Positions 1-33,098 of a stretch of 64,000 nt of DNA are shown piece by piece. Positions within the stretch are counted from its first letter, which is position 1, and each line of letters begins with the position of its first letter. Source of the stretch: Escherichia coli (GTDB taxonomy: Bacteria > Pseudomonadota > Gammaproteobacteria > Enterobacterales > Enterobacteriaceae). The notes under the pieces are model-generated. The model was not told the DNA's origin. It did no database searches and saw nothing but the letters and a program-made list of their open reading frames with translations. The position numbers and the translations under genes are program-made. Location: the NCBI RefSeq assembly GCF_001677475.2, contig NZ_CP015229.1; one strand, 5' to 3'.

Positions 1-3000
1 ACCACCGTGCAGGCCGGTTTAAGCTGGAGCGTGAGCGTTCCGGAGGCAGATATTCAGGCGCTGGGCAATGGTGATTTAACGGTTAATGCCTCGGTCACCA
101 ATCAAAACGGCAACACCGGCAGCGGCACGCGGGATATCACCATCGACGCCAATCTACCCGGTCTGCGGGTCGATACGGTGGCGGGCGATGATGTGGTCAA
201 TATCATCGAGCACGGGCAGGCGCTGGTGATCACCGGCAGCAGTTCGGGGCTGGCAGAAGGCACGCCGCTTACCGTCACGATTAATAATGTGGAATACACC
301 ACCGCGGTGCAGGCCGATGGTAGCTGGAGCGTGGGCGTCACGGCGGCGCAGGTTAGCACCTGGCCTGCGGGGACGGTTAATATTGCTGTATCCGGGGAAA
401 GTAGCGCCGGAAACTCGGTGAGCATTACGCATCCGGTGACGGTGGATCTCACTCCGGCGGCGATCACCATCAACACCATCGCCACGGACGACGTGATTAA
501 CGCCGCAGAAAAAGGCGCTAATTTAACTCTTTCCGGCACCACCACTAACGTAGAACCCGGTCAAACCGTCACCGTTACCTTTGGCGGGAAAAATTACACT
601 GCCAGCGTGGCGAGCGATGGTAGCTGGACTGCCACCGTTCCTGCCGCCGATTTAGCGGCATTACCCGAGGGCAGCGCCTCCGCGCAGGCCAGCGTCAGCA
701 ATATCAACGGCAATAGCGCCTCGGCGGTGCATAACTACAGCGTCGACAGCAGCGCGCCAACCATCATTATCAATACCGTTGCCAGCGACAATATCGTCAA
801 CGCCAGCGAAGCCGATGCGGGCGTGACGGTGAGCGGCAGCACCACCGCTGAAGCGGGGCAGATTGTTACAGTAACGCTCAATAGCCCGACCGTGCAGACC
901 TATCAGGCAACGGTACAGGCCGATGGCAGCTGGAGTATTAATATTCCGGCGGCAGATCTTGAGGCATTGACAGATGGTAGCCACACCCTGACCGCCACGG
1001 TCAATGATAAAGCGGGCAACCCGGCGAGCACCACGCACAATCTGGCGGTGGATCTCACCGTTCCGGTACTTACCATCAACACCATTGCGGGCGACGATAT
1101 TATTAACGCCGCCGAACACGGGCAGGCGCTGGTGATTTCCGGTTCCAGCACCGGCGGAGAAGCGGGGGATGTCGTCACCGTCACGCTAAACAGTAAAACC
1201 TATACAACAACGCTGGACGCCTCCGGCAACTGGAGCGTCGGCGTTCCGGCGGCGGATGTCACCGCGCTTGGTAGCGGCCCGCAAACTGTTACCGCCACGG
1301 TGACTGATGCGGCAGGCAACAACGATAGTGAGACGCATACGGTCACCGTCAACCTTACCGCGCCAACCATTGGCATTAACACCATCGCTACCGATGACAT
1401 AATTAACGCCACGGAAAAAGGCTTGGATCTGCAAATTACCGGCACCAGTAATCAGCCCGCAGGCACCACAATTACGGTGACGCTGAACGGGCAAAATTAC
1501 ACCGCGACGACGGACGCAGCAGGCAACTGGAGCACCACGGTGCCCGCTTCCGCAGTAGGTGCGCTGGGCGAAGCCAGCTACACGGTGACGGCGAACGTCA
1601 CCGACAGCGCAGGTAACAGCAATTCCGCCAGCCATAACGTGCAGGTCAATACCGCGCTGCCTGGTGTCACCATTAATCCGGTGGCGAGCGACGATATTAT
1701 TAACGCCGCCGAATCGGGCGTGGCGCAGACCATCAGCGGCCAGGTGACGGGCGCGGCGGCGGGCGATACGGTTACCGTAACGCTTGGCGGGAAAACCTAC
1801 ACCGCTACCGTGCAAGGCAATTTAAGCTGGAGCGTGGACGTTCCGGCGGCGGATATTCAGGCCATCGGTAATGGCGATCTGACGGTTAACGCTTCGGTGA
1901 CCAACGGCGTTGGCAACACCGGCAGCGGTTCGCGAGATATTACTATCGACGCCAATTTGCCAGGTCTGCGCGTCGATACCGTGGCGGGCGATGATGTGGT
2001 CAACAGCATCGAGCACGGTCAGGCACTGGTGATAACTGGTAGCAGCAACGGGCTGGCGGCGGGCGCGGCGCTGACGGTGGTGATCAATAACGTCACCTAT
2101 GGCGCGACAGTATTAGCCGATGGTACATGGAGCGTTGGCGTTCCGGCGACAAACGTAGGTAACTGGCCTGCGGGTACGGTGAATATCACGGTTTCAGGTG
2201 CTACTAGCGCAGGAAACCCGGTCACCATCACCCATCCAGTCACCGTCGATCTGGCAGCGGTGGCGATTTCCATTAACACCGTTTCCGGCGACGATGTGAT
2301 TAACGCTGCTGAAAAAGGGGCCGATTTAACCCTTTCCGGCAGCACCTCTGGCGTGGAAGCGGGGCAAACGGTCACTGTTACCTTTGGCGGTAAAACCTAC
2401 ACCGCCACCGTAGCGGGCGATGGTAGCTGGACAACCAGCGTGCCTGCCGCCGATCTCGCCGCATTACGCGACGGCGACGCCACGGTACAGGCGAGCGTCA
2501 GCACTATTAACGGCAACACGGCTTCGGCAACCCACGCCTACAGCGTCGATGCTACAGCACCGACGCTTGCCATTAATACCATCGCCACCGACGATATTCT
2601 GAACGCCGCCGAAGCGGGCAATCCGCTAACCATCAGCGGCAGCAGTACCGCCGAAGCGGGGCAGACGGTAACCGTCACGCTTAATGGCGTGACTTACAGT
2701 GGCACCGTTCAGGCGGACGGTAGCTGGAGCGTCAGCGTGCCGACGGCAGATCTCAGCAATCTGACCGCCAGCCAGTACACCGTCAGCGCCTCAGTCAACG
2801 ATAAAGCGGGTAACCCAGCGTCCACTACTCACGGGCTGGCGGTGGATCTCACCGTGCCGGTGCTGACCATTAACACCGTCTCGGGCGATGACATTATTAA
2901 CGCCGCCGAACACGGACAGGCGCTGGTGATCTCCGGTTCCAGCACTGGCGGCGAAGCGGGCGATGTCATCACCGTCACGCTAAACAGTAAAACCTACACC

Positions 3001-15000: not shown

Positions 15001-17724
15001 GACGACACTACGCCGTTGCTGAACGGCGTGCTCTCCGGCCCGCTTGCCAGCGGTGAAGTGGTTTACCTCTACCGTAACGGCCTGCTGTTAGGTGCGGTGA
15101 CGATGGTAGGCGCACTGAACTGGACCTACAGCGACAGCGGGCTGGTGAGCGGTGCCTACACCTACAGTGCGCGAGTGGTGGATCTGGCGGGGAATATCAC
15201 CTCCTCCAGTGATTTTGTCCTGACGGTCGATACCTCTATTCCAACCACGCTGGCGCAAATTACCAGCCAGACCACGCGCGATACCACGCCGATTATCAGC
15301 GGGGTGATCACGGCGGCACTCGCCAGCGGGCAGTATGTTGAAGTGGTGATCAACGGCAAAACTTACACTTCGCAGCCAGGCGGCGCGGTGGTGGTCGATC
15401 CGGCGCACAACACCTGGTATGTGCAACTGCCGGATACCGACACGCTGGCGGCGTCTGCGACCGCCTATAACGTCACCGCGCAGGTAAAAAGCTCGGCGGG
15501 CAACGGCAACACCGCCAACGTCAGCACTGGCACGGTAACGGTCAACGCGGCGATTGATTACACTCCGACCTGGACCACCGCCAGCAAATCTACCGCCTGG
15601 GGGCTGACCTACGGCCTCGACACGCACGGGATGTGGACGGTGCTGGCAAACCAGCAGGTAATGCAATCGACTGACCCACTCACCTGGTCGAAGACCGCGC
15701 TGACGCTGTATCAGAGCGGCAACAACTACGCCACCAGCTCCATCGCCGATTACGACCGTAACGGCACGGGCGATCTGTTTATCACCCGTGATGACTACGG
15801 TACAGGCTATATCAACGGCTTTACCAATAACGGCGACGGCACCTTTTCCAGCGCTATTCAGGTCACCGTCGGCACGCTGACGTGGTACGGCTCGATTGTG
15901 GCATTTGATAAAGAGGGCGACGGCTATCTCGACTTCTGGATTGGCGACGCGGGCGGGCCGGACTCTAACACCTTCTTGTGGAATAACGCAGGCACGCTGG
16001 TAGGCAACTCCACCACGTCGAACAGCGGCGGTAGCGCTACGGTGGGCGGGACGGTGACGGGGTATCTTTCGCTTAACGAAGGTTCCGGCGTCGATCTTAA
16101 TAATGACGGCAGGATTGACCTGGTTCAGCACACCTTCAACCTGAACAACTATTACACGCTGTCGTCGCTCATCAACCAGGGGAATGGCACGTTTGTCTGG
16201 GGGCAGAACACCATTAACACCTTCCTCAGCACGGCGGGCAGCGGTGGTAACTCGACGTCTGTCTCCATGACCTGGGCCGATTTCGATGGTGATGGCGATA
16301 TGGATCTCTTCCTGCCAGCCAGCCAGGGAAGAGCTAACTACGGCTCCCTGTTATTCAACACCAACGGCGTGCTGGGCAGTCCGGTGGCGGTGGGGGCTAC
16401 GGCAACCACCTACGCCAGCCAGTTTAGCGTGGCGGTGGACTGGAACCACGACGGCCTGATGGATATCGCCCGTATCGCCCAGACCGGACAATCGTATCTT
16501 TACACCAACGTTGGTGGTGCCAGCAACTGGACGCAATCAACCCTCGGCGGTAGCCAGAGCGGCACCACCAGTGGCGTGGCGGCAATGGACTACGACTGGG
16601 ACGGCGCGGTGGATGTACTGGTAACCAAACAGTCGGGCAGCGTGTTCCTGATCCGCAACACCAACACGGTGAGCTACGGCACTTCGCTGCACCTGCGCAT
16701 CACCGATCCCAACGGCATTAACGTCTATTACGGCAATACCGTGAAGCTGTACAACTCGGCGGGGGTGCTGGTCGCCACGCAAATCATTAACCCGCAGTCG
16801 GGGATGGGGGTTAACGATACCTCGGCGCTGGTCAACTTCTACGGGCTGAATGCCGGGGAAACCTACAACGCGGTGCTGATCAAATCCACCGGCACCACAG
16901 CCAGCAATATCGACCAGACGGTCAACACCAGCTGGGGCGGCTTACAGGCCACCGATGCCACCCACGCTTACGATCTCAGCGCCGAAGCGGGTACCGCGAG
17001 CAACAACGGCAAGTTCGTCGGCACCGGTTATAACGACACCTTCTTTGCCACCGCAGGCACCGATACCTACGACGGTTCCGGCGGCTGGGTGTACAGCTCC
17101 GGCACCGGAACGTGGCTTGCGAACGGCGGTATGGACGTGGTTGATTTCCGCCTCTCGACGGTGGGCGTGACCGCGAACTTAAGCAGCACCGCCGCGCAGG
17201 CTACTGGCTTTAACACCTCGACATTTACCAATATCGAAGGCATTTCCGGCTCGAATTTTAACGACACTCTGACCGGCAGCAGCGGCGATAACCAACTGGA
17301 AGGGCGCGGCGGCAACGACACCCTTAACATCGGAAACGGCGGTCACGATACCTTGCTCTATAAACTGCTCAACGCCAGTGACGCTACCGGCGGCAACGGC
17401 TCAGACGTGGTGAATGGCTTTACGGTAGGGACATGGGAAGGCACCGCCGACACCGATCGCATTGATATCCGCGAGTTGTTACAGGGCAGCGGCTACACCG
17501 GCAACGGCAAAGCCAGCTACGTCAACGGCGTGGCAACGCTGGATGCGCAGGCCGGGAACATCGGTGATTTTGTCAAAGTCACCCAGAGCGGCAGCGACAC
17601 CATCGTGCAGATCGACCGCGACGGCACGGGCGGCACTTTTGCGGCAACTAACGTGGTCACGCTGACGGGCGTGCATACCGACCTCGCCACTTTGCTGGCG
17701 AATCATCAGTTGATGGTGGTGTAG
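1..17724 (+). CDS. Giant type I-secreted Ig-like repeat adhesin (SiiE/BapA/LapA-like), 5'-partial; at least 5907 aa in window
   Basis: Frame 1 is open from base 1 to TAG at 17722-17724, so the true start is upstream. About 100-aa Ig-like repeats with recurring xDDxINAxExG motifs; C-terminal FG-GAP/VCBS-like D-x-D-G-D repeats, RTX-type glycine-rich nonapeptides (GRGGNDTLN, GNGGHDTLL) and a D-V-V-N-G-F ... D-R-I-D-I tail typical of T1SS C-terminal secretion domains; T1SS ABC and MFP genes follow immediately. Confidence 0.9.
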   Translation, partial: TTVQAGLSWSVSVPEADIQALGNGDLTVNASVTNQNGNTGSGTRDITIDANLPGLRVDTVAGDDVVNIIEHGQALVITGSSSGLAEGTPLTVTINNVEYTTAVQADGSWSVGVTAAQVSTWPAGTVNIAVSGESSAGNSVSITHPVTVDLTPAAITINTIATDDVINAAEKGANLTLSGTTTNVEPGQTVTVTFGGKNYTASVASDGSWTATVPAADLAALPEGSASAQASVSNINGNSASAVHNYSVDSSAPTIIINTVASDNIVNASEADAGVTVSGSTTAEAGQIVTVTLNSPTVQTYQATVQADGSWSINIPAADLEALTDGSHTLTATVNDKAGNPASTTHNLAVDLTVPVLTINTIAGDDIINAAEHGQALVISGSSTGGEAGDVVTVTLNSKTYTTTLDASGNWSVGVPAADVTALGSGPQTVTATVTDAAGNNDSETHTVTVNLTAPTIGINTIATDDIINATEKGLDLQITGTSNQPAGTTITVTLNGQNYTATTDAAGNWSTTVPASAVGALGEASYTVTANVTDSAGNSNSASHNVQVNTALPGVTINPVASDDIINAAESGVAQTISGQVTGAAAGDTVTVTLGGKTYTATVQGNLSWSVDVPAADIQAIGNGDLTVNASVTNGVGNTGSGSRDITIDANLPGLRVDTVAGDDVVNSIEHGQALVITGSSNGLAAGAALTVVINNVTYGATVLADGTWSVGVPATNVGNWPAGTVNITVSGATSAGNPVTITHPVTVDLAAVAISINTVSGDDVINAAEKGADLTLSGSTSGVEAGQTVTVTFGGKTYTATVAGDGSWTTSVPAADLAALRDGDATVQASVSTINGNTASATHAYSVDATAPTLAINTIATDDILNAAEAGNPLTISGSSTAEAGQTVTVTLNGVTYSGTVQADGSWSVSVPTADLSNLTASQYTVSASVNDKAGNPASTTHGLAVDLTVPVLTINTVSGDDIINAAEHGQALVISGSSTGGEAGDVITVTLNSKTYTTTLDASGNWSVGVPLSDVTALGSGPHTITAAITDAAGNSDDASRTVTVNLTAPTIGINTIATDDVINATEKGADLQITGTSNQPAGTTITVTLNGQNYTATTDASGNWNATVPASAVSALGEANYTVTANVTDTAGNSNSASHNVLVNSALPAVTINAVATDDIINDAESGNAQTISGQVTGAAAGDTVTITLGGNTYTATVQANLSWSVSVPAADIQAIGNGSLTVNASVTNVVGNTGNGSRDITIDANLPGLRVDTVAGDDVINSIEHNQALVITGSSSGLTVGTALTVVINNVTYGATVLADGTWNLGVPAADVSNWPAGTVDIMVSGTNSAGTTSTITHPVTVDLAAVAITINTLSGDDVINAVEKGETLVVSGSTSGVEAGQTVTVTFGGKNYTTTVEANGSWTVNVPPADLAALPDGAGNVQASVSNINGNNAQADRAYSVDATAPLVTINTIASDDTLNVSEAGAGITISGTTTAQAGQTLTVTLNNNTYQTTVLADGTWSVNVPASDLSGLTASSYTVTATVSDKAGNPASADHALAVDVTAPDLTINTVAGDDIINAIEHGQALVVSGTSTGAAAGDVVTVNLNGKNYTTTLDASGNWSVGIPAADVTALATGSQTITASLSDRAGNSDSTTHDVIVDLSGPTLTINTVSGDDIINNTEKTQDLTISGGSSGLATGTTVTVMLNGLAYSATTDGSGNWSITVPASAVGALGEAVYSISASATDSAGNNGSTTHTVNVESLLPGVIINTVAGDDIINAAEIVVAQTISGQVTGTAVAGNTVIVTIGGNQYTATVQPDLSWSVSVPANVLQALGNGELTISASVTNGVGNTGTATHDIVIDANLPGLRVDTVAGDDVINSIEHTQALVVTGSSTGLAAGAALTVVINSVTYGATVLADGTWSVGVPAADVTNWPAGTVNIAVSGTNTAGTTTSITHPVTVDLAAVAITINTLSTDDVINAAEKGSDLQLSGTTSDVEAGQTITVIFGGKSYTTTVATGGTWGLTIPAADLATLPDGAANVQASVSSVAGNIAQATHVYSVDATAPSVTINTIASDDILNAAEAGSALTISGTSTAEAGQTVTVTLNGVNYSGNVQADGSWSVSVPTGDLANLTASPYTVSAAVSDKAGNPASATHNLTVDLAAPVVTINTVAGDDIINATEHGQAQIISGSATGATTGNTVSVTIGTTTYTTVLDANGNWSIGVPASVISALAQGDVTITATVTDSAGNSGTASHTVTVALGAPILSINTIAVDDIINATEKGADLAISGTSDQPAGTQVTVTLNGQNYTTTADASGNWSVTVPASRVSALGEASYTVTASATDTDGNSGSASHNVQVNTALPGVTISVVATDDIINAAEAGADQTISGQVTGAAAGDTVTVTLGGATYTATVQANFSWSVNVPASALQALGNGELTISASVTNSVGNTGNGTREITIDANLPGLRVDTVAGDDVVNIIEHGQALVITGSSSDLAAGSNVTLTINGQTYVAAVLADGSWSVGVPAADVSAWPAGTVTITASGNTTAGNPVSVTHPVTVDLTAVAVSINAITADDVINAAEKGAALTLSGSTSGVEAGQGVTVTFGGKTYTASVAANGYWSTTVPAADMAALRDGDASAQASVSNVNGNSATTTHAYSVDASAPTVTINTIAGDDILNAAEAGSALTITGSSTAEAGQTVTVTLNGENYTGTVQTDGSWSVSVPPADLSALTASNYTVNAAVSDKAGNPASVNHNLTVDTSVPVVTINTVAGDDVINATEHAQAQIISGSATGAATGSAVTVTIGTNTFTTVLDASGNWSVGVPASVVSALANGTVTINASVTDAAGNSGSATHQVTVNTGLPSITFNAISGDNVLNADEKGQPLTISGSSTGLATGAQVTVTLNGHNYSATTDAAGNWTLTVPVSDLAALGQANYTVSASATSAAGNTASSQANLLVDSGLPGVTINTVAGDDIINAAEAGADQTISGVVTRAAAGDTVTVTLGGNTYTTTVQGNLSWSISVPAADLQALGNGDLTINASVTNANGNTGSGTRDITIDANLPGLRVDTVAGDDIVNSIEHGQALVITGGSSGLNAGVPLTITINGTVYSATVQADGSWSVGIPAANVSAWPAGALTIDVTGQSSAGNSVSVSHPFTVDLTAVAISINTIASDDVINAAEKGTGLTLSGSTSGIESGQTVTVTFGGKTYTASVAANGSWSVTVPAADLATLPDGAANVQASVSSASGNSASATHAYSVDASVPTLTINTIASDDILNATEAGSPLTISGTSTAETGQTVTVTLNGAIYTGTVQADGSWSVSVPTSALGALSASNYTVSATVNDKAGNPGSASHNLAVDTTAPVLTINTVAGDDIINDAEHAQALVISGTSTGGEAGDVVSVVLNGKTYTTTLDASGNWSVGVPAADVAALGSGAQTITASVSDRAGNSDDASRTVTVSLSAPVISINTIAGDDVINATEKGSDLALSGTSDQPAGTAITVTLNGQNYSATTDASGNWSVTVPASAVSALGEATYSVTASVTNAQGNSSTASHNVQVNTALPGVTINPVATDDIINAAEAGSAQTLSGQVTGAAAGSTVTVELGGKTYTATVQADLSWNVSVPASDWQALGNGELTVNASVTNAVGNTGSGTRDITIDASLPGLRVDTVAGDDVVNIIEHSQAQVITGSSSGFAAGTALTVVINNQTYAATVLANGSWSVGVPATDVSNWPAGTLNITVSGANSAGTQTSITHPLTVDLTTVAISINAITPDDVINAAEKGAALTLSGSTSGVEAGQTVTITFGGKTYTTTVAANGSWSTTVPAADLAALRDGDASAQVRVTNVNGNSATATHEYSVDSAVPTVTINTIASDNIINASEAAAGVTVSGTSTAETGQTLTVTLNGTNYQTTVQADGSWSLTLPASDLTVLANNGYTLTATVSDQAGNPGSASKGVTVDTTAPVISFNTVAGDDVINNVEHTQAQIISGTATGAVAGDRLVVTIAGQQYVTSTDASGNWSVGVPASVISGLADGTVTISATVTDSAGNSSTQTHNVQVNTAAVSLSVSTISGDNLINAAEAGSALTLSGTGTNFATGTVVTVLLNGKGYSATIQSNGSWSVNVPAADVAALADGTSYTVSASAQDSAGNSATASRSVAVDLTAPVININTVSTDDRLNAAEQQQPLTLNGSTSAEVGQTVTVTFGGKTYTATVAANGTWALNVPAADLAALGQGAQTITASVNDRAGNPGQTTHALTVDTVAPTVTIATVAGDDIINNVEQLAGQIISGTTTAEVGQTVTVTFNGQSWTATVGSGGSWSVFIPAQQFAGLSDGSYTISASVSDQAGNPGSASRGVTLNGDVPTVTINTFAGDDVVNAAEHGSSLVISGTTTAPVGQTLTLTLNGKTYTTTVQTGGSWSYTLGSADVTALADGNAYVINASVSNAIGNTGSSNHTITVDLSAPAMGINIDSLQADTGLSASDFITSVSPVVVNGSLTAALASNETAQISIDGGVTWTTLTVTGTTWRYNDSRTLTDGNYLYQVRVIDAAGNVGATDSQNVVIDTTAPDPAVKTIAISAITTDTGLITNDFVTSDTTLAVSGTLGAALSAGEFAQISIDGGTTWQNLSVSGLTWTYLDGRTLSDGNYNYQVRVIDTAGNIGATASQIVTVDTTAPLASKTIVIAGISDDTGLSSSDFVTRDTTLTVRGTLGATLAADERAQISLDGGVTWTTLTVIGTSWSYADGRTLTDGTWNYTVRVVDLAGNIGQTATQNVVVDTTSPEAAKSITITGISDDTGASSSDFITSDTTLTVRGVLGAALGANEFAQISTDNGATWVNVTVAADGLNWSYVDGRTLTNGTTTWQVRVVDLAGNVGATGSQSAQIDTVNPAQVLTIASISTDTGSSATDFITSDTTLTLTGSLGAGLASGEVAQISLDGGATWITLTTNGTQWTYTDGRTLTDGSYVYQVRVLDQAGNIGPVVSKTVVVDTINPTATPTIVSYTDDVGQRQGTLSSSQATDDTTPLLNGVLSGPLASGEVVYLYRNGLLLGAVTMVGALNWTYSDSGLVSGAYTYSARVVDLAGNITSSSDFVLTVDTSIPTTLAQITSQTTRDTTPIISGVITAALASGQYVEVVINGKTYTSQPGGAVVVDPAHNTWYVQLPDTDTLAASATAYNVTAQVKSSAGNGNTANVSTGTVTVNAAIDYTPTWTTASKSTAWGLTYGLDTHGMWTVLANQQVMQSTDPLTWSKTALTLYQSGNNYATSSIADYDRNGTGDLFITRDDYGTGYINGFTNNGDGTFSSAIQVTVGTLTWYGSIVAFDKEGDGYLDFWIGDAGGPDSNTFLWNNAGTLVGNSTTSNSGGSATVGGTVTGYLSLNEGSGVDLNNDGRIDLVQHTFNLNNYYTLSSLINQGNGTFVWGQNTINTFLSTAGSGGNSTSVSMTWADFDGDGDMDLFLPASQGRANYGSLLFNTNGVLGSPVAVGATATTYASQFSVAVDWNHDGLMDIARIAQTGQSYLYTNVGGASNWTQSTLGGSQSGTTSGVAAMDYDWDGAVDVLVTKQSGSVFLIRNTNTVSYGTSLHLRITDPNGINVYYGNTVKLYNSAGVLVATQIINPQSGMGVNDTSALVNFYGLNAGETYNAVLIKSTGTTASNIDQTVNTSWGGLQATDATHAYDLSAEAGTASNNGKFVGTGYNDTFFATAGTDTYDGSGGWVYSSGTGTWLANGGMDVVDFRLSTVGVTANLSSTAAQATGFNTSTFTNIEGISGSNFNDTLTGSSGDNQLEGRGGNDTLNIGNGGHDTLLYKLLNASDATGGNGSDVVNGFTVGTWEGTADTDRIDIRELLQGSGYTGNGKASYVNGVATLDAQAGNIGDFVKVTQSGSDTIVQIDRDGTGGTFAATNVVTLTGVHTDLATLLANHQLMVV
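16..12600 (+). repeat. Tandem ~1.8 kb super-repeats (six Ig-like domains per unit) inside the adhesin gene, about 7 units in window
   Basis: The motif GLSWSVSVP...IQALGNG...LPGLRVDTVAGDDVVN recurs at nt ~19, 1820, 3614, 5414, 7208, 9003 and 10798 with high but imperfect nucleotide identity. Confidence 0.85.
13320..14900 (+). repeat. Second repeat class in the adhesin: ~105-aa domains (DTGxSxSDFxTSD...AQISxDGGxTW...YQVRVxDxAGN), 5 canonical copies plus 2 divergent ones up to ~15300
   Basis: Copies start near 13330, 13640, 13965, 14285 and 14600, period ~320 bp. Confidence 0.8.
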
Positions 17725-17727
17725 AGA

Positions 17728-19890
17728 ATGAAAAAAAATGCCCAGTCCGTGGAAGCCTGGCTGGAGGCGATGATCGCCGTGGCGCGTTATTACCGCCTTG
17801 ATTTTTCTCAGGAGAACGTGCGCGCAACCGTCAACTGGGAGCGCGACAGTAAGCGGGAAGAGTTGCTCACCGATATGGCGCGGCAACTGGGAATGGGGTT
17901 ACGGCTGGTGGAGTTTTCCGCCGATTCGCTTAACCCGTGGCGACTGCCGTTGATCGCCGTGTTTGATAATCAGCAGATTGGCGTGATCACCCGCCGCGAT
18001 AACCACGACAATATCAGCGTTCAGTTCAGCGGTGACGAAGGGCTGGAAACCACGCTTAACGTCGCGGATATTGAAGATAAAATCGTCGAACTGGCGCTAC
18101 TGCGCCCGCTCAGCGCCATCCCCGACGCGCGCGTGGATGACTATATTCGCCCGTATCAGGCGAACTGGTTCTGGAATCTGTCGCTGAAAGACTGGCGGCG
18201 CTATGGCGACATTATGCTGGCCTCGCTGGTGGCGAACGTGCTGGCGCTGGCGGCGATGATTTTCTCGATGCAGGTTTACGACCGCGTCGTTCCGGCGCAG
18301 TCGTACCCGACGCTATGGGTGCTGTTCGCCGGGGTGATGATGGCGATCCTGTTTGAGTTCTGTATGCGCATGGTGCGCACGCACCTTTCCGATGTGATCG
18401 GCAAGCGGGCGGATCTGCGCATTTCGGATCGCGTTTTTGGTCATGCGCTACGGCTGAAAAACAACGTGCGATCGAAATCCACCGGATCGTTTATCTCGCA
18501 GATCCGCGAGCTGGAATCGGTGCGGGAGCTTATTACTTCCACCACCATCGGCGCGGTGGCGGATCTGCCGTTCTTCCTGCTGTTTGTCTTTATTTTGTGG
18601 ATGATCGGCGGCTGGCTGGTGCTGGTTGTTTTGCTGGCGCTGCCGTTATTAGTGATCCCCGGCCTGCTGGTGCAACGCCCGCTGGCGCGGCTGGCGAACG
18701 AAGGAATGCGTGAGTCGGCGGTACGTAACGCGACGCTGGTGGAAGCCGTGCAGTCGATTGAAGACATTAAACTGCTGCGCGCTGAACAGCGTTTTCAGAA
18801 TCAGTGGAATCACACTAACGACGTGGCCTCGTCCATCAGCATGAAGCAACGTTTTCTCACCGGGCTACTGCTCACCTGGACCCAGGAAGTGCAATCCATC
18901 GTCTACGTGGTGGTGCTGTTGGTGGGCTGCTTTATGGTGATGAACGGCGACATGACCACCGGTGCGCTGGTCGGGACGACGATCCTGGCTTCGCGCACCA
19001 TCGCGCCGCTGTCGCAGATATCCGGCGTGCTCTCGCGCTGGCAGCAGGCGAAAGTGGCGCGTAACGGCCTCGATGAACTGATGAAGCGCCCGGTGGATCA
19101 ACCGGAACACGGCAAACTGGTGCATAAAGCAGTGCTGCACGGCAATTATCAGTTCAGCAACGCGGTGTTTTATTACGACGAAGAAGAGAAGATTGCCGAT
19201 GTGGCGATTGGCAAACTTAACATTCAGGCGGGTGAGAAAATCGCCATTCTTGGGCGCAACGGCGCGGGTAAATCGACGCTACTGCAAATGCTCGCCGGAA
19301 TGCGTATCGCCCAGCAGGGGCAGGTGCTGCTGGATAACATCAGCATCGGGCAGCTTGATCCGGCGGATCTGCGCCGCGACATGGGGCTGCTCAGCCAGAC
19401 CGGGCGACTGTTCTTCGGTTCGCTGCGGGAAAACCTCACTATGGGGATGCCGGAAGCCAGCGATGAAGATATCGAACGCGCATTAATCCTCAGCGGGGCG
19501 CTGCCCTTTGTGCAGAAGCAGAAAAACGGCCTCAACTACATGATTCAGGAAGGGGGATTTGGTCTTTCTGGCGGTCAGCGGCAAACGCTGCTGCTGGCGC
19601 GGCTACTTATCTCTCAACCCAATATCGTGCTGCTCGATGAACCCAGCGCCTCGCTGGATGAAATGGCAGAAGCGTATTTAATTGAACAACTAAAACAATG
19701 GGTTGGGCATCGCACGCTGGTCATCGCTACTCACCGCACGGCGATGCTGCAACTGGTGGACAGGATCATCGTGATGGATCAGGGGCGGATTGTGATGGAT
19801 GGCGCGAAAGAGGCCATTTTGCGTGAACAGGGCGAACCCACGACGCGACGGGTGGTGTTGCAGGAGAAGAATAAGGGGTCTGCCGCATGA
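17728..19890 (+). CDS. Type I secretion system ABC transporter, HlyB/LapB-like (ATPase plus permease, N-terminal C39-like domain)
   Basis: 720 aa; Walker A GRNGAGKST, ABC signature LSGGQRQ, Walker B LLDEPSASLD, hydrophobic TM segments in the middle. ATG lies 3 nt after the adhesin stop. Confidence 0.9.
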   Translation: MKKNAQSVEAWLEAMIAVARYYRLDFSQENVRATVNWERDSKREELLTDMARQLGMGLRLVEFSADSLNPWRLPLIAVFDNQQIGVITRRDNHDNISVQFSGDEGLETTLNVADIEDKIVELALLRPLSAIPDARVDDYIRPYQANWFWNLSLKDWRRYGDIMLASLVANVLALAAMIFSMQVYDRVVPAQSYPTLWVLFAGVMMAILFEFCMRMVRTHLSDVIGKRADLRISDRVFGHALRLKNNVRSKSTGSFISQIRELESVRELITSTTIGAVADLPFFLLFVFILWMIGGWLVLVVLLALPLLVIPGLLVQRPLARLANEGMRESAVRNATLVEAVQSIEDIKLLRAEQRFQNQWNHTNDVASSISMKQRFLTGLLLTWTQEVQSIVYVVVLLVGCFMVMNGDMTTGALVGTTILASRTIAPLSQISGVLSRWQQAKVARNGLDELMKRPVDQPEHGKLVHKAVLHGNYQFSNAVFYYDEEEKIADVAIGKLNIQAGEKIAILGRNGAGKSTLLQMLAGMRIAQQGQVLLDNISIGQLDPADLRRDMGLLSQTGRLFFGSLRENLTMGMPEASDEDIERALILSGALPFVQKQKNGLNYMIQEGGFGLSGGQRQTLLLARLLISQPNIVLLDEPSASLDEMAEAYLIEQLKQWVGHRTLVIATHRTAMLQLVDRIIVMDQGRIVMDGAKEAILREQGEPTTRRVVLQEKNKGSAA

Positions 19891-21062
19891 ATGGACAACT
19901 GCAATACAACCGTGGCCTGACTGAACCCCGCCTGCCGCGTTCGGCGCTGGCGGTACGCGTTACCGCTGTGATGCTGCTCTGTTTTCTCGGCTGGGCGTGG
20001 TACTTCCAGCTTGATGAAGTCACCACCGGCAGCGGCACGGTAGAACCTTCCGGGCGCGAACAGGTGGTGCAGTCGCTGGAAGGCGGAATTCTGTATCATC
20101 TCGACGTCAAGGTTGGCGATATTGTTGAACAGGGCCAGCCGCTGGCGCAGCTTAACCGCACCAAAACGGAATCCGACGTCCAGGAAGCAATGTCGCGGCT
20201 GTACGCGGCGCTGGCAACCTCGGCGCGGCTGCGGGCGGAAGTGAGTAATAAACCGCTGGTCTTCCCTGACGAACTGAATAAATTCCCCGAACTTATCGAG
20301 TCGGAAACGGCGTTGTACAACACTCGCCGCGATGGGCTGAACAAAGCCACCACCGGGCTGACGCAGGGGATTAGCCTGGTCAACCGCGAACTGGCGATGA
20401 CCCAGCCGCTGGTAAAACAGGGGGCGGCGAGCAGCGTCGAAGTGCTGCGCCTGCAACGCCAGGCCAATGAACTGGAAAACAAACTTAGCGACGTACGTAC
20501 GCAATATTACGTTCAGGCGCGCGAAGAGTTAGCGAAAGCCAATGCGGAAGTGGAAACCCAGCGTTCGGTGATCCGTGGACGGGAAGACTCCCTCACCAGG
20601 CTCAACTTTACTGCGCCAGTTCGTGGCATTGTTCAGGATATTGATGTCACCACAGTTGGCGGCGTCATTGCCCCCGGTGGTAAACTGATGACCATCGTGC
20701 CGCTGGATGAGCAACTGCTGATTGAGGCAAAAATCTCCCCGCGCGATGTGGCGTTTATCCATCCGGGGCAAAAATCGCTGGTGAAAATAACCGCTTACGA
20801 TTACTCCATTTATGGCGGTCTGCCGGGAGAAGTGGCGGTGATTTCACCAGATACCGTGCAGGATGAAGTGCGGCGCGATGTTTATTACTATCGGGTGTAC
20901 ATTCGCACTTTCAGCAACCATCTGGAAAACAAAAGCAAACAGCAGTTTCCGATATTTCCCGGTATGGTGGCGACGGTCGATATCCGCACCGGCAAAAAGA
21001 GCGTGCTGGATTATCTGTTGAAACCCTTTAATAAAGCACAGGAGGCGTTGCGCGAACGATGA
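19887..21062 (+). CDS. Type I secretion membrane fusion protein (HlyD family periplasmic adaptor)
   Basis: 391 aa; N-terminal TM segment, long coiled-coil region, C-terminal beta domain; 4-bp ATGA overlap with the ABC gene stop. Confidence 0.85.
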
Positions 21063-21466
21063 ACATTAGCGATGTAGCAAAAATTACCGGCCTGACCAGC
21101 AAAGCAATCCGCTTCTATGAAGAGAAGGGGCTGGTGACGCCGCCGATGCGCAGCGAAAATGGTTATCGCACCTACACGCAGCAGCATCTCAACGAACTGA
21201 CCTTACTGCGCCAGGCGCGCCAGGTGGGCTTTAACCTGGAAGAGAGCGGCGAACTGGTGAATCTGTTTAACGACCCGCAGCGCCACAGTGCTGATGTAAA
21301 ACGGCGCACGCTGGAGAAGGTGGCGGAGATCGAGCGACATATCGAAGAACTGCAATCCATGCGCAACCAGCTGTTGGCGCTGGCGAATGCCTGCCCTGGC
21401 GATGACAGCGCCGACTGCCCGATTATCGAAAATCTCTCCGGCTGCTGTCATCATCGGGCGGGGTGA
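21059..21466 (+). CDS. cueR: Copper-responsive MerR-family regulator CueR
   Basis: 135 aa; N-terminal MerR HTH ([25 protein letters not shown]) and C-terminal CxxxxxxxxC metal site ([10 protein letters not shown]); matches E. coli CueR as I recall it. ATG overlaps the HlyD-like stop (ATGA). Confidence 0.93.
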
Positions 21467-21469
21467 AAA

Positions 21470-21673
21470 TCAGTTAATCCCCGTTTGCACCGAAAGAATA
21501 TGCTGCAAACTTTCTACCATTATGCGCCCCGATTGAAATAAGCCTTCCTGGATTTCATTGTTAACATTCACAGCGTGAACCAGGGAGGCTAATAACACCA
21601 CTTGCAAGAAGGCAAAAATAAACGCACCGATAATCATAATATGCGTCAGGGGGATTTTCCTTTGCTCCTTCAT
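21470..21673 (-). CDS. Small hydrophobic membrane protein (67 aa), hypothetical
   Basis: One predicted TM helix (IMIIGAFIFAFLQVVLLASLV); start overlaps the upstream lipoprotein gene stop (ATGA); stop lies 3 nt from the convergent cueR stop. Confidence 0.45.
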   Translation of the reverse strand: MKEQRKIPLTHIMIIGAFIFAFLQVVLLASLVHAVNVNNEIQEGLFQSGRIMVESLQHILSVQTGIN

Positions 21674-22092
21674 TTTAAATAACCCACAAACTGACCTTCC
21701 TTCATTAAGGCGACTTTTCCCGTGTGGTGATAAACAATGACGTTATAAAGACCTGACTGATAAACAGTGGCATCTTTATTGTCTTCATCAATTGCACATA
21801 ATGAATCATTGAGATAAGCAAAGTTCTTACTGCTCATTCTAAAGGTCATGCCAAATCCTTTATAAATGGCTTTCTTTGCCGCCTGGGCATGTTGTGCGGC
21901 TTCTGCATTTTTAAATGCCTGCGCCTCGGATGCACTTAAAATAGCCGTCTGACGCTGTTGTTCTGCGAGATAACAGGTGTCATGGCTGACGCCCTGCGCC
22001 TGGCAATCTGCGATGCGGGAAGTGGGTGAACTACAGCCAGCCAGTAATATAACCGCCAGCAGGGAAAACGATTTAATGGAACTATTCATCAT
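21670..22092 (-). CDS. Putative lipoprotein (140 aa), hypothetical
   Basis: Signal peptide with lipobox LLAGC; co-directional with and downstream of the YadA-anchor gene. Confidence 0.6.
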   Translation of the reverse strand: MMNSSIKSFSLLAVILLAGCSSPTSRIADCQAQGVSHDTCYLAEQQRQTAILSASEAQAFKNAEAAQHAQAAKKAIYKGFGMTFRMSSKNFAYLNDSLCAIDEDNKDATVYQSGLYNVIVYHHTGKVALMKEGQFVGYLK

Positions 22093-22177
22093 TGTTAACC
22101 TTAAATAATGTACAAATTAATGAAGAGGTGAAACCCGGCAAGCTTCCTTGCTCTTATTTATATTGAGGATTGGAATA

Positions 22178-23194
22178 TTAGAAAGAATATCCCACGCCGA
22201 CACCCGCGCCGAAATCAGATTGCGTATCCGCAGAGACACCGGCTTTAATCACGGTATGCGTTCCGGCATTAAAAGATGTTCCTACAGACACCGCAGATTC
22301 ACCGTTGAACGTTCCCGCTCCCGCTGACACCATCATCAAGTCACCGGTTTTCACCTGTGGTTGTGAGGCGATAGCGATGGCAGATGCAGTTCCCGCATTG
22401 GCTTCTTTACGATTGTCCTCAACTTCGTTTTTCAGAGAATCGAAATGGTTATTGAGCGTGTTAATTTGTTGGCTGTTATCTGCGACCCGTTTTTGCGTGT
22501 TGGTTAACTGTTGCTGCGTTTGTGCGGAATCTTGTCTCAGACTTTCAATTTGCTCATGTGCCTGGACAGACTTCTGCGCCAGACTTTGCATTTGTTTATC
22601 GTATTGAGCCCTTTCTTTTTGCTGTTGTGCTGCCACATCGGTTGTCAGTGCATTCATTTTCTGCCCTTGTTCCGTGGTAGTGCGCTGAATAGCCTCATTT
22701 TGAGCCGCCAGTCTGGCATTAATCATCTCCTGATAATGCGCAGTATTTTGCGTATCTCCAGTCGCGGCGAGCGTTTTTTGTGTGGCTACGATCTGCGCCT
22801 GTTGCTCTGTAATTTGCGTTTGCTGGGCATCAGTTACCGCAGACTGTCGGGCGTTGATCATGCTCTGATAACGGGCTGGTGTCTGTGCATCACCTGTAGC
22901 GGCAACGGTTTTTTGTCCTGCGTCAGGATCTGTCTGGACAGTGGGAGTCTGAGTGGTATCAGGTGTTTCAGAAGGGATGTAGTGATGTTCAGTCAAATAG
23001 GTATACGCAGCGGGGCTGTTGTCTGTGCGTTCTAAAAAGCGGGTAATCTTCTGCTCAATCTCCGATTGCGACATGCCAGAGTTAATGGCTGAAAGCTCTG
23101 TTGCCGCCGCTTCAATGGTATCACCAGCTAAAACAACAGGGCTGGATGTTGCTGAAATTATGAGTGCCAGTAAAGCTACGTTTACAGTTTTCAT
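22178..23194 (-). CDS. Short trimeric-autotransporter-like protein with YadA-type C-terminal membrane anchor and Q-rich coiled-coil stalk, no recognisable head domain
   Basis: 338 aa; N-terminal signal peptide; last ~75 aa (AGTASAIAIASQPQVKTGDLMMVSAGAGTFNGESAVSVGTSFNAGTHTVIKAGVSADTQSDFGAGVGVGYSF) fit the YadA anchor pattern (G/A-rich entry helix, four beta strands, terminal aromatic); internal ~45-aa duplication in the stalk. Confidence 0.7.
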   Translation of the reverse strand: MKTVNVALLALIISATSSPVVLAGDTIEAAATELSAINSGMSQSEIEQKITRFLERTDNSPAAYTYLTEHHYIPSETPDTTQTPTVQTDPDAGQKTVAATGDAQTPARYQSMINARQSAVTDAQQTQITEQQAQIVATQKTLAATGDTQNTAHYQEMINARLAAQNEAIQRTTTEQGQKMNALTTDVAAQQQKERAQYDKQMQSLAQKSVQAHEQIESLRQDSAQTQQQLTNTQKRVADNSQQINTLNNHFDSLKNEVEDNRKEANAGTASAIAIASQPQVKTGDLMMVSAGAGTFNGESAVSVGTSFNAGTHTVIKAGVSADTQSDFGAGVGVGYSF

Positions 23195-23357
23195 TCATTT
23201 TCTCTTGTTCAAAATAAGTCGCACTAATGTTTCTATAAGAAACAAATAATATTATTTTAAGAAATAAACTACGTTGCAATTTAATCGAAATTTACGCCGC
23301 CATTTGTGTGATGTAAAGCGCATTTTTGTCTGGTGTAAGCGTAAACACCATCAATAA

Positions 23358-23382
23358 GAAACAAAAATGGTTTCTTATATAA
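23358..23382. promoter_or_regulatory. Perfect inverted repeat ATAAGAAAC-N7-GTTTCTTAT in the divergent promoter region; candidate operator
   Basis: Read directly from sequence; a partial copy TAAGAAACAAA occurs near 23236. Confidence 0.35.
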
Positions 23383-23560
23383 ATAAAAAAGGAAATCATT
23401 TCGTGCTCTTTCAATGTAAAAAAGAGTAAAGGCTTGTTTTGATAAGCGAAATAAATTCTGTTTCTGGACTAAACGTGAACCGGTTCCTGATGTGTGTTAA
23501 AATGCGTTTCTTTGATAAATCTCAATTTTTAAGAGGTTTACGCCAGGCAGGAAAATTTAA

Positions 23561-23923
23561 ATGAATGAATTTGAGAAGATTTTTAATGAAATGAATCTGG
23601 ACCGGGCATTGCTACCGATCCTTTTTCGTTCGAACCGGTCAACAGTGTGGAAATATTTAAGTGGCGATAGTACGGCTCCTGCCTCAGCTATGTCACTGAT
23701 TATGCTGTTGCAGTTAATCCAGAAACGAAACCCCGATCTGTTAGCCGAATGGTTAACGCTTTCTGATTTCACCATTCCGCCAGAAGTTTACCTGGACCAG
23801 CCTGATTACTGGAAAGGGTGGGTGTATACGCAACACAAGGTCAATAAAAACGTCCTGGAATATCTAAAAAAACATTATCCGGATGAAGACCAAAAAAACA
23901 TGAATAAAGGTAGTGACGAGTAA
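23561..23923 (+). CDS. Hypothetical protein (120 aa), possible small DNA-binding regulator
   Basis: ORF divergent from the YadA-anchor gene across a 366-bp AT-rich spacer; no confident family assignment from sequence alone. Confidence 0.4.
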   Translation: MNEFEKIFNEMNLDRALLPILFRSNRSTVWKYLSGDSTAPASAMSLIMLLQLIQKRNPDLLAEWLTLSDFTIPPEVYLDQPDYWKGWVYTQHKVNKNVLEYLKKHYPDEDQKNMNKGSDE

Positions 23924-23949
23924 TTTGCCAATGCCAGTTAATATAGCGG

Positions 23950-24107
<158 letters not shown>

Positions 24108-26303: not shown

Positions 26304-27069
26304 TATTACTAACGAATCATTGGCACTGGCATTAATGCTAGTGGTGGTGGCAATCTTAATTAGCCATAAAGAAAAACTGGCGCTGGAGAAAGATATTCTC
26401 TGGAGCGTCGGGCGCGCGATAATTCAGCTGATTATTGTCGGCTATGTGCTGAAGTATATTTTCAGCGTGGATGATGCCAGCCTGACATTATTGATGGTGT
26501 TATTTATCTGCTTTAATGCGGCGTGGAACGCGCAAAAACGCAGTAAATATATTGCTAAAGCTTTTATCTCATCGTTTATTGCCATTACGGTCGGGGCGGG
26601 AATTACCCTTGCGGTGCTGATTCTCTCAGGGTCGATTGAATTTATCCCGATGCAGGTGATCCCTATCGCCGGGATGATAGCCGGTAACGCCATGGTAGCG
26701 GTGGGGTTGTGTTACAACAATTTAGGGCAACGGGTCATTAGCGAACAGCAACAGATTCAGGAGAAACTGAGTCTTGGCGCGACGCCGAAGCAGGCTTCAG
26801 CGATATTGATTCGCGACAGTATTCGCGCGGCTTTAATTCCGACGGTCGATTCAGCAAAAACGGTTGGCTTAGTGAGTTTACCAGGAATGATGTCCGGGCT
26901 GATATTTGCCGGGATTGATCCGGTGAAGGCGATTAAATATCAGATTATGGTGACCTTTATGCTGCTCTCAACCGCCAGCTTGTCGACCATTATTGCCTGC
27001 TATTTAACCTATCGTAAGTTTTATAATTCGCGCCACCAGTTGGTGGTGACGCAATTGAAGAAGAAATGA
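26290..27069 (+). CDS. fetB: Iron export ABC transporter permease FetB (YbbM)
   Basis: Polytopic membrane protein; start set at the internal ATG (MNSHNITNE...) giving 259 aa as in K-12; the track ORF begins 27 nt upstream. Confidence 0.85.
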   Translation: MNSHNITNESLALALMLVVVAILISHKEKLALEKDILWSVGRAIIQLIIVGYVLKYIFSVDDASLTLLMVLFICFNAAWNAQKRSKYIAKAFISSFIAITVGAGITLAVLILSGSIEFIPMQVIPIAGMIAGNAMVAVGLCYNNLGQRVISEQQQIQEKLSLGATPKQASAILIRDSIRAALIPTVDSAKTVGLVSLPGMMSGLIFAGIDPVKAIKYQIMVTFMLLSTASLSTIIACYLTYRKFYNSRHQLVVTQLKKK

Positions 27070-27105
27070 TGCGATGCCGGATGCGCAGCATCGCATCCGG
27101 CGTTG
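27070..27105. terminator. Hairpin between convergent fetB and ybbN (REP-like)
   Basis: Inverted repeat GCCGGATGCG...CGCATCCGGC directly after the fetB stop. Confidence 0.5.
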
Positions 27106-27131
27106 TGGTTCATGTGCCGATCAACGGAATA

Positions 27132-28028
<897 letters not shown>

Positions 28029-28046
28029 TTAAGCGCGCGCTTCAAC

Positions 28047-28856
28047 TCACCCCTGCAATATTTTGTCCATCACGCGCCCCGGCAGCAGGCGCTTGAGCAC
28101 CATTACTGCCCAGGTCACCAGCGTTACCGGATAGCGCATCTTCGGTTTCTCGCTAATAAAAGCATGGCGCACTTTGTCGACCACCGCTTCCGGCCCCAAC
28201 GTAAAGCGGGCGGCGATGCCGGGATTTTCGACTGGTTTATCGCTTTGCGTCTGGTTGACGTTGTCGGTAAAGCGAGTACGAATGGGCCCCGGCTCAATCA
28301 GGCTGACTTTAATTCCGCTGTGGCGCAGCTCCATGCGCAGCGCGTCTGACCACGCCTCCAGCGCATATTTACTGGCCGCGTAAGCGCCGCGACCCGGTGT
28401 GGAGATTAATCCCATCACCGATGAGGTCATCACAATACGCCCTTCACCGTGCGGCAACATAGCGGGTAACAGGCGCATGGTGAGCTGATGCGCGCCGAAA
28501 AAGTTGGCGGAAAACTGCTGTTCCATCTGCGCGCGGCTGATGGTGGAAAGGGGGCCATACATGCCGAATCCGGCATTGTTAAAGATCCCATACAGACAAT
28601 TATCGGTCAGGGCGATCACTTCGTCGGCAGCGCGATCAACACTTTCTGGCGAATCAAGATCGATCAACACACCGGTGAATCCCATGCTGTTCATGCGCTC
28701 AACATCATCCGGCTTCCGGCAACCTGCCAGCACATGAAAACCCTGGCGTTTTAATTCGAGCGCGCTTTCCAGGCCAATTCCACTGGAACATCCGGTAATT
28801 AAGACCGATTTTTGCATAACTTTACCTGTCAGGATCTCCGTTGCTTTATGAGTCAT
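28047..28856 (-). CDS. ybbO: Short-chain dehydrogenase/reductase YbbO
   Basis: 269 aa; Rossmann motif TGCSSGIG near the N-terminus, catalytic YAASK. Confidence 0.9.
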   Translation of the reverse strand: MTHKATEILTGKVMQKSVLITGCSSGIGLESALELKRQGFHVLAGCRKPDDVERMNSMGFTGVLIDLDSPESVDRAADEVIALTDNCLYGIFNNAGFGMYGPLSTISRAQMEQQFSANFFGAHQLTMRLLPAMLPHGEGRIVMTSSVMGLISTPGRGAYAASKYALEAWSDALRMELRHSGIKVSLIEPGPIRTRFTDNVNQTQSDKPVENPGIAARFTLGPEAVVDKVRHAFISEKPKMRYPVTLVTWAVMVLKRLLPGRVMDKILQG

Positions 28857-32537: not shown

Positions 32538-32554
32538 TGACAGGCGTTAGATTG

Positions 32555-32660
<106 letters not shown>

Positions 32661-32685
32661 GTGCATTTTGGCAATAAATATGAAA

Positions 32686-32741
32686 CCAACTGTCATGTCG
32701 GTTTTTTTAAAGGCCGAAGGTGGTAAACCTTCGGCCTTAGC
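32686..32741. terminator. Terminator module of repeat copy 1: stem CCAAC/GTCGG plus T-tract and adjacent GGCCGAAGG...CCTTCGGCC hairpin, immediately 3' of the minus-strand peptide ORF
   Basis: Palindromes read from sequence; the first hairpin is a one-mismatch copy of the terminator at 33162-33190. Confidence 0.5.
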
Positions 32742-32754
32742 TACGTTTCCTCAG

Positions 32755-32838: not shown

Positions 32839-33063
32839 CCGTTGCTCCCTTAAGGGAGAAAGACAATCACAGCTTACCCTTACGTTGCCTGTAACTATGA
32901 TTTTCTTCATGTGCTAGATGAGGACTGCCTCTCTCCAAATTAGAGCACCAGAATCAGCACCACCTGTATCCTGACCAGGACTTAAAAGTACTTTTCCGCA
33001 CTGCGGTAATCCCTTGAGGCAGTATCACTACTAGCGTCGGGATTGTATCGCCAGCATAGCTGT

Positions 33064-33092: not shown

Positions 33093-33098
33093 TCACTT

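Follow-up and report, generated by a model that had tools for sequence, protein, structure and literature searches.

The first 21,062 nucleotides of the window, a 64,000-nucleotide stretch of Escherichia coli contig NZ_CP015229.1 (assembly GCF_001677475.2), very probably belong to the E. coli SiiEA / O-island 28 (OI-28) system, an operon made up of a tolC-like gene, the giant adhesin gene siiEA, and genes for an ATP-binding cassette (ABC) exporter and a periplasmic adaptor; the window covers the last 85% of siiEA together with both inner-membrane genes. The locus is already known through RefSeq annotation and experiment. A first-pass annotation of this DNA had proposed a giant adhesin of immunoglobulin (Ig)-like repeats with type I secretion genes of its own, and had pointed to an island with an RTX (repeats in toxin)-like exoprotein at a comparable position in enterohaemorrhagic E. 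coli (EHEC). The proposal is upheld by the domain matches described below and by the location of the exporter and adaptor genes directly downstream of the adhesin gene, and the EHEC island can be named as O-island 28 of strain EDL933 (PMC12758282; Gut Microbes, December 2025).

In a megablast comparison with 5,426 complete E. coli genomes, the same arrangement of siiEA, type I secretion permease/ATPase gene, HlyD-family adaptor gene and cueR was retrieved, and the collinear gene carries the RefSeq name "siiEA: BapA-related adhesin SiiEA". The island DNA is 94.7–97.4% identical to the annotated E. coli siiEA loci. The full locus of strain GMF054 (ybaT, a TolC-family gene, siiEA of 20,778 nt encoding 6,925 aa, ABC exporter gene, adaptor gene, cueR) aligns with the window in one collinear match of 94.7% identity over 21.75 kb with zero net length change. 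The SiiEA/OI-28 locus of EDL933 occupies the same site, flanked by ybaT and cueR, agrees in gene order and domain architecture, and shows 94–97% identity in collinear DNA; in the window, adhesin, exporter, adaptor and cueR follow each other in this position and order, the ybaT and tolC-like side being read from the annotated loci. By collinearity with GMF054, about 3.05 kb of the 5′ end of siiEA and the upstream TolC-family gene would lie beyond the left window edge. The N-terminus of GMF054 SiiEA matches family NF047714 (adhesin_SiiEA, a 229-aa region; 504.5 bits, cut-off 425) as well as the BapA-prefix family NF033677, and the gene upstream of GMF054 siiEA matches the TolC model TIGR01844.

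Frame 1 of the plus strand contains no stop from base 1 until the TAG at positions 17722–17724, i.e. over 5,907 codons, in agreement with the single open reading frame (ORF) of at least 17.7 kb noted earlier, and the start of the gene is therefore placed to the left of the window. This frame (1..17724, plus strand, including the stop) is collinear with GMF054 siiEA and represents the 3′ 85% of the gene, the first residue in the window corresponding to about residue 1018 of the 6,925 in GMF054 SiiEA. The allele is open across every visible codon. The visible part of the protein (587 kDa, pI 4.05) contains no cysteine and is enriched in Thr, Ala, Gly, Val, Ser, Asn and Asp, a composition typical of type I secretion substrates, and complete SiiEA would form a surface fibre of roughly 700 kDa. 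The G+C content of siiEA is 59–63%, that of the two secretion genes 56–58%, and that of the flanking core genes about 47–56%. The minus strand within 1–17724 features dozens of antisense ORFs of 80–347 aa (e.g. 15088–16131, 347 aa). These are presumably by-products of the high-G+C repeats, and probably account for the many EDL933 locus tags between z0609 and z0634.

The larger part of the frame (1..13344, plus strand) encodes an extender made of a partial domain and 44 Ig-like domains of about 100 aa, delimited by their periodicity and by matches to NF033510, NF012196 and structure 4P99, and predicted from their family to be stabilised by Ca2+. A motif scan located 44 domain starts within aa 57–4448, at a spacing of 99–102 aa. 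Clustering of all-against-all identities yielded the domain order (ABCDEF)x6, ABCD, G-B-H-I, with a partial F domain at the left window edge; identities amount to 53–89% within a class and mostly to 31–56% between classes. The six complete super-repeats of six domains start at nt 169, 1972, 3766, 5566, 7360 and 9157, and are followed by a partial super-repeat of four domains (ABCD, 10951–12147) and by four singleton domains (G-B-H-I, 12148–13344), all on the plus strand. In the DNA, the copies recur every 1794–1803 nt and are 60–87% identical over 300-nt stretches. Both the approximately 100-aa Ig-like domains and the 1.8-kb super-repeats of the first-pass annotation were thus recovered, the latter by autocorrelation, domain clustering and repeat finding, although Tandem Repeats Finder, whose longest period is 500, missed the 1.8-kb period for this reason and reported a 318-nt array (13710–14385) alone.

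A gene so highly repetitive, and with its 5′ end out of view, could be an assembly artefact of collapsed or chimeric repeats, or a dead gene in this strain, as pseudogene alleles are present in O157:H7, O145 and other strains. This is very unlikely: the frame runs for 5,907 codons without a stop; its repeat copies, being only 60–87% identical in DNA, can be assembled unambiguously, which makes collapse or misassembly improbable; and it has the single collinear, length-neutral match to an independent genome described above. The full length of that match partner, 20,778 nt, is shared by five genomes (four with an intact allele and one with an internal stop), and this also speaks against misassembly.

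The search of the translated protein for domains returned both the Ig-like and the RTX domains that had been expected of it (NF033510 and HemolysinCabind, respectively). The NCBIfam Ca_tandemer model NF033510 matched 49 stretches of the extender (E=0), and Ig_like_ice (NF012196) matched as well. Among solved structures, the extender resembles the RII tetra-tandemer of MpAFP (4P99, E=2.7e-58), an RTX adhesin (5IRB, 4e-41) and a Lap fragment (6XI3, 2e-12), whereas SiiE was absent among the PDB matches of the 44 extender domains. On these matches, the bulk of the extender domains can be assigned to the MpIBP-RII / BapA kind and not to the SiiE kind. A long tandem array of Ig-like extender domains, as is characteristic of RTX adhesins, is therefore present, its Ca2+ binding being predicted from the family. 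MpIBP of Marinomonas primoryensis and the Lap adhesins of Marinobacter and Pseudomonas, whose extenders belong to the same family (4P99, 5IRB, 6XI3), share a general plan with SiiEA: a part for N-terminal retention, which is putative in SiiEA, an extender stiffened by Ca2+, modules for ligand binding at the distal end, RTX repeats and a signal for type I secretion. Two differences stand out: the extender described here is a diversified super-repeat of six domain types, whereas those of MpIBP and Lap consist of near-identical copies, and the distal module here is an FG-GAP propeller, unlike the ice-, sugar- and peptide-binding domains which form the distal modules of MpIBP.

The resemblance to the giant adhesins of Salmonella enterica is divided between BapA and SiiE. 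As in the bapABCD system, a substrate with Ig-like repeats is accompanied by a dedicated set of TolC-like channel, ABC exporter and adaptor, and the BapA-prefix domain (NF033677) is found in the homologue. BapA is only about half the size of SiiEA, and the BapA secretion genes are all located downstream of bapA. With SiiE, encoded in Salmonella pathogenicity island 4 (SPI-4) and the source of the gene name siiEA, SiiEA shares its nature as a giant Ig-repeat protein exported by a type I system and, by prediction, its Ca2+ binding, and the C-proximal domains of SiiEA match the bacterial Ig (BIg) domains BIg50-52 of SiiE (E=1.1e-8). An array of SiiE-type BIg domains was nevertheless not found, the 44 extender domains being of another family; the N-terminus of the SiiEA homologue carries the BapA-prefix, while that of SiiE is a coiled-coil region; and, unlike in SPI-4, no siiA/siiB-like (MotAB-like) genes are present between ybaT and cueR in the E. 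coli loci. The architecture had first been likened to SiiE, BapA and LapA, and this can now be specified as an extender of the MpIBP-RII/BapA kind, SiiE-like C-proximal domains and an exporter of the LssB/LapB type, with the refinement that no LapG or LapD was seen at the locus.

Between the extender and the RTX part lie seven Big_13/SiiE-like domains and an FG-GAP propeller which the first-pass annotation had missed. The former (13345..15555, plus strand; aa 4449–5185) comprise five Big_13 repeats of about 106 aa, with a period of 318 nt, and two divergent Ig-like domains resembling SiiE BIg domains. Pfam Big_13 was matched four times, with E-values down to 3e-13, and the match to SiiE BIg50-52 (2YN3/2YN5), at aa ~4849–5082, concerns the sole part of the adhesin that matches SiiE. 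The subsequent FG-GAP beta-propeller and beta-sandwich (15583..16920, plus strand; aa ~5195–5640) form a candidate ligand-binding tip, with three matches to Pfam FG-GAP_3 (E=2e-9 to 3e-7). An AlphaFold2 model of the C-terminal module, for which 39 C-terminal modules from related loci served as input alignment, reached a mean predicted local distance difference test score (pLDDT) of 78.8 and a predicted template-modelling score (pTM) of 0.68. The best Foldseek match of the predicted tip was CRTAC1 (9ETN, E=1.3e-14, template-modelling score 0.61), followed by the Psathyrella velutina lectin (PVL, 2BWR) and the propellers of integrin alpha. The predicted fold thus agrees with that of the CRTAC1/ASPIC, PVL and integrin alpha propellers, including FG-GAP repeats of the Ca2+ type, whereas sequence identity to these proteins is only 10–16% and the propeller is here one module of a bacterial fibre. 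The tip module is kept at 42–58% identity in about 40 related loci. It is likely to be the binding module of this adhesin.

At its C-terminal end (17008..17721, plus strand) the protein has a short RTX beta-roll, built of degenerate GGxGxD nonapeptides, and behind it a C-terminal domain for type I secretion that is not cleaved. The latter (nt 17404–17712, plus strand) matches TIGR03661, the type I secretion C-terminal target domain, with 32.8 bits against a cut-off of 17.6. The RTX part consists of about 5–8 degenerate nonapeptides, with weak matches to HemolysinCabind (E=2e-4) and to the RTX blocks of CyaA (E=2e-3), and the C-terminal portion of the AlphaFold2 model matches the beta-roll fold of serralysin/PrtC. 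The RTX-like repeats and type I secretion tail of the first-pass annotation, both of them features of RTX adhesins, are accordingly there, the repeats being few. The original EDL933 annotation, "RTX family exoprotein", taken with such repeats and secretion signal, could describe a released exoprotein or toxin instead of a surface-anchored adhesin. We regard this as extremely unlikely, since a pore-forming hydrophobic domain is absent from the protein and an acyltransferase gene from the locus, since Ig-like extender makes up more than 85% of the protein and the homologue carries the N-terminal BapA-prefix module, and since deletion of OI-28 affected colonisation of mice but neither weight loss nor survival (PMC12758282).

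The exporter gene (17728..19890, plus strand) begins after a spacer of 3 nt from the adhesin stop, and encodes a type I secretion ABC permease/ATPase of 720 aa. It is followed by the gene for a HlyD-family periplasmic adaptor of 391 aa (19887..21062, plus strand) and by cueR (21059..21466, plus strand), a core gene which encodes the Cu(I)-responsive MerR-type regulator and forms the right border of the island. ATGA overlaps join the stop of the exporter gene to the start of the adaptor gene, and the stop of the adaptor gene to the start of cueR, so that the island does adjoin cueR, as had been noted. Tightly coupled HlyB-like and HlyD-like genes had also been proposed; the coupling and the HlyD-like adaptor (TIGR01843, HlyD-family type I adaptor, 327.7 bits, cut-off 208.7) stand, but the HlyB subfamily does not. 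The exporter scored 834.9 bits with TIGR03375 (LssB/LapB type; cut-off 693.1), and only 387.3 bits, below the cut-off of 725.6, with the HlyB subfamily model TIGR01846; it aligns over its full length with HlyB (7SGR, E=2e-80). Residues 12–82 of the exporter weakly match Peptidase_C39, and the first 160 residues contain no cysteine, which indicates a non-catalytic C39-like N-terminal domain. Adjacent genes for a C39-like ABC exporter and an adaptor thus accompany the adhesin, as is usual for RTX adhesins, and a TolC-family gene for the channel is seen in the homologous loci only. By comparison with these loci, the outer-membrane component would be encoded by this dedicated TolC-family gene upstream, beyond the window. 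The assignment of cueR rests on NF007590 (308 bits, cut-off 244). A consensus promoter scan detected no sigma-70-like site for cueR within the 3′ end of the adaptor gene, and PMC9628877 is silent on a cueR promoter.

An exporter of the LssB/LapB subfamily brings to mind adhesins of the LapA type, in which a periplasmic protease like LapG and a cyclic di-GMP (c-di-GMP) receptor like LapD control whether the protein stays on the surface. Residues 96–101 of the E. coli homologue read DTAAGG, at a position which we take to be close to that of the TAAG site in LapA, and a gene for a protein with a LuxR-type helix-turn-helix (HTH) and an EAL domain lies beside the locus in relatives from Enterobacter and Lelliottia. 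The di-alanine is not kept, however, with TGETAG, AGEASG and AASGG in Enterobacter and others, and no LapG- or LapD-like gene is apparent in the E. coli locus from ybaT to cueR or downstream in those related loci that were sampled, a search confined to these loci and not extended to whole genomes. TAAG at residues 97–100 of the E. coli protein was dropped as a candidate LapG site on account of its lack of conservation in the family alignment. Taken together, the unconserved motif and the lack of lapG/lapD-like genes near the locus make a release switch of the LapA type unlikely. In the Enterobacter and Lelliottia relatives, the adaptor gene is followed by a conserved gene of 283–294 aa on the opposite strand and then by one for the LuxR-HTH/EAL protein (about 485 aa, read by eye in one relative). 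This neighbour, absent from the Escherichia locus, hints at c-di-GMP-linked control in those genera.

The model with the best support for SiiEA is that of an RTX adhesin, for which the following mode of action may be proposed. An acidic, cysteine-free chain of about 6,925 aa would be exported unfolded, C-terminus first, as type I secretion biology and the domain matches imply. Its uncleaved C-terminal domain would be recognised by the LssB/LapB-type exporter with its non-catalytic C39-like domain, assisted by the HlyD-type adaptor and the TolC-family channel. Outside the cell, Ca2+ would fold the short RTX beta-roll and, given membership of the extender in the Ca_tandemer / MpIBP-RII family, stiffen about 60 Ig-like domains into a rod of a few hundred nanometres. 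The N-terminal BapA-prefix domain with its Gly/Ala-rich hydrophobic segment, known from the 94.7%-identical homologue, may plug the channel and so tether the fibre, while the SiiE-like Ig domains and the Ca2+-type FG-GAP propeller at the far end would, from the predicted fold, bind a ligand on the host or another surface. The net effect would be early attachment to epithelia, which was demonstrated in EDL933 when the secretion genes were deleted and complemented (PMC12758282). The N-terminal module, including the hydrophobic segment PWGWxAGAAxGGGAxGALL, is conserved across genera; sequence searches with the N-terminal 300 aa of the homologue gave only chance matches to solved structures, so that the idea of a plug depends on this conservation and on the name given to the family.

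The experimental work on the locus comes from a single study of EDL933 (PMC12758282), in which the genes are named tolC28 (z0608), rtxA28/rtxB28 (z0609/z0615), hlyB28 (z0634) and hlyD28 (z0635). Loss of OI-28 or of any single one of its genes reduced both adherence to Caco-2 cells and colonisation of mice, with a decrease in Caco-2 adherence of about 3.3-fold at 3 h for the whole-island deletion; in mice, the deletion changed colonisation only, not weight loss or survival. RstA was reported to bind upstream of tolC28 and to activate the OI-28 genes, and Ca2+ chelation to reduce OI-28 expression as well as adherence. Pseudogenes and frameshifts receive no mention in that study, and the other E. 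coli literature found on siiEA consists only of an annotation mention for UMN026/enteroaggregative E. coli and of genome-comparison papers.

The main role of SiiEA may instead be that of a BapA-like protein of biofilms and environmental surfaces, in attachment from cell to cell or to plants and abiotic surfaces, with EHEC epithelial adherence as a secondary effect. The BapA-prefix N-terminal domain and BapA-type naming point in this direction, as do an extender of the MpIBP/Lap kind known from environmental bacteria, the wide occurrence of the family in plant- and insect-associated Rahnella, Rosenbergiella, Pantoea, Erwinia and Enterobacter, and the presence of the island in numerous E. coli isolates of commensal or environmental origin. 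The sole direct data, on the other hand, are those on Caco-2 adherence and mouse colonisation (PMC12758282), and the literature on siiEA yielded no data on biofilms. Such a main role thus seems rather doubtful, while retaining appreciable weight; the two roles are in any case mutually compatible.

The exporter and adaptor genes were found in 959 of the 5,426 complete E. coli genomes (about 18%), and the C-terminal module of the adhesin in 957. Among the alleles examined, a siiEA length of 20,778 nt is the commonest. It is found in GMF054, SCU-105, EC1515 and O55:H7 strain TB182A, all with an intact gene, and in O145 strain RM12367-C1, where the gene contains an internal stop and is annotated as a pseudogene. 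The gene of strain LR-28, annotated as intact, has 20,460 nt; the shortfall of 318 nt equals the period of the Big_13 array and may lie there. In AST85, siiEA (21,670 nt) is a pseudogene. Both O157:H7 alleles are frameshifted with an internal stop: in FRIK2533 the gene measures 20,161 nt (2063–22223 of the stretch compared), and in Z1615 its 5′ end falls outside the stretch compared and the N-terminus is missing. The FRIK2533 frame is split into pieces of 1,461, 3,979 and 1,170 aa, the internal stop following codon 1461, and about 300 nt and about 318 nt are missing relative to the intact allele. The allele of the window, in contrast to this broken copy, is open as far as visible and has the length expected of the intact 20,778-nt allele.

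The "two RTX proteins" published for O157:H7, rtxA28 and rtxB28, therefore seem to be pieces of a single gene, intact in O55:H7 and other strains. Of these pieces, the first would be without a C-terminal secretion signal and the subsequent ones without an N-terminal module, and the published phenotypes accordingly need careful interpretation. Several considerations weigh against a function of SiiEA as a secreted, surface-tethered adhesin, or limit how far it can be argued here. All functional data stem from O157:H7, where siiEA, in the genomes examined, is annotated as a frameshifted pseudogene, and may not transfer simply to an intact allele; adhesin complementation, moreover, was done with two-domain truncations only (PMC12758282). 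The RTX block is short and its profile matches are weak. Retention at the surface is argued from analogy, and ligand binding by the tip from a predicted model. Finally, the window does not reach the promoter, the TolC-like gene or the initial ~1,018 codons, so that the intactness of the allele can be checked only in part. An intact allele such as that of the window is nonetheless better material for studies of the adhesin than the O157:H7 copy.

Clues on the history of the island were provided by the genomes that lack it. Roughly 4,460 island-less genomes match the adaptor gene over its final ~100 nt, directly before cueR, at about 90% identity. The corresponding segment of the window (20966..21062, plus strand) covers the final ~97 nt of the adaptor gene; of the whole island, K-12-like E. 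coli have retained just this segment before cueR, in frameshifted form. The K-12-like genome compared carries a remnant of 98 nt (2502–2599 of the locus compared) 30 nt past the ybaT stop, which the Prokaryotic Genome Annotation Pipeline (PGAP) annotates as a frameshifted partial pseudogene, and which, when aligned, proves to have lost 1 nt from an A-run. The position of this adaptor remnant indicates a deletion scar, most E. coli having lost the island by deletion. What drives cueR in K-12-like E. coli must sit within 128 nt, which are mostly former coding sequence. The island also adjoins cueR in E. whittamii, from which we infer that the island existed before E. coli arose and has disappeared from most lineages. 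It would then, judging from these comparisons of sequence, not have been gained by EHEC, contrary to what was suggested in PMC12758282, and its high G+C content points to an older foreign origin.

It is plausible, if only as a tentative proposal, that the island is an old Escherichia trait lost in most E. coli through one deletion of ~26 kb that left 98 nt behind, with the O157:H7 copy broken; that the intact gene encodes a fibre of ~700 kDa whose lectin-type tip, a Ca2+ beta-propeller like those of CRTAC1 and PVL, would set the specificity for host or surface; and that expression of cueR may be tied to the secretion operon by the ATGA overlap.

Beyond Escherichia, the order of giant adhesin, ABC exporter and adaptor genes is kept in about 45 loci of Enterobacterales, and the module occurs at 42–58% protein identity in Enterobacter, Lelliottia, Citrobacter, Cedecea, Rahnella, Rosenbergiella, Pantoea, Erwinia and one Pseudomonas. 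Pseudocitrobacter faecalis harbours a collinear block of adhesin, exporter and adaptor genes (1–13307 of the stretch compared) of 85.7% DNA identity in another genomic context; homology ends at base 21037 of the window, and a cho-like excinuclease gene replaces cueR. The sequence of this block suggests transfer between genera.

As to the remainder of the window, its core genes (e.g. 27000–34000) reach at best 97.7% identity to those of a genome among the 5,426 complete ones of E. coli, and are 88–94% identical to E. whittamii and Escherichia sp. E1V33; the lineage appears to lie at or just past the edge of sampled E. coli. An assignment to E. whittamii was rejected: its ABC protein is 99% identical to that of the window, but its DNA only 88–94%, against 97.4–97.7% for E. 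coli. An insert of 2.6 kb between cueR and ybbJ (21467–24107), absent from K-12-like genomes, contains a lipoprotein-like ORF of 140 aa (21670–22092, minus strand). A short trimeric autotransporter of 338 aa, with a YadA anchor (Pfam, E=1e-11) and a coiled-coil stalk, is encoded at 22178–23194 (minus strand), and an orphan ORF of 120 aa (23561–23923) lies in a kilobase of 39.6% G+C. No RHS element is present in the interval between ybbP and mnmH (32538–33251), unlike in GMF054 and O157:H7. Rfam searches gave matches to naRNA4/CssrE at 23981–24058, to AgrB at 33100–33190 and to STnc480 at 46308–46374.

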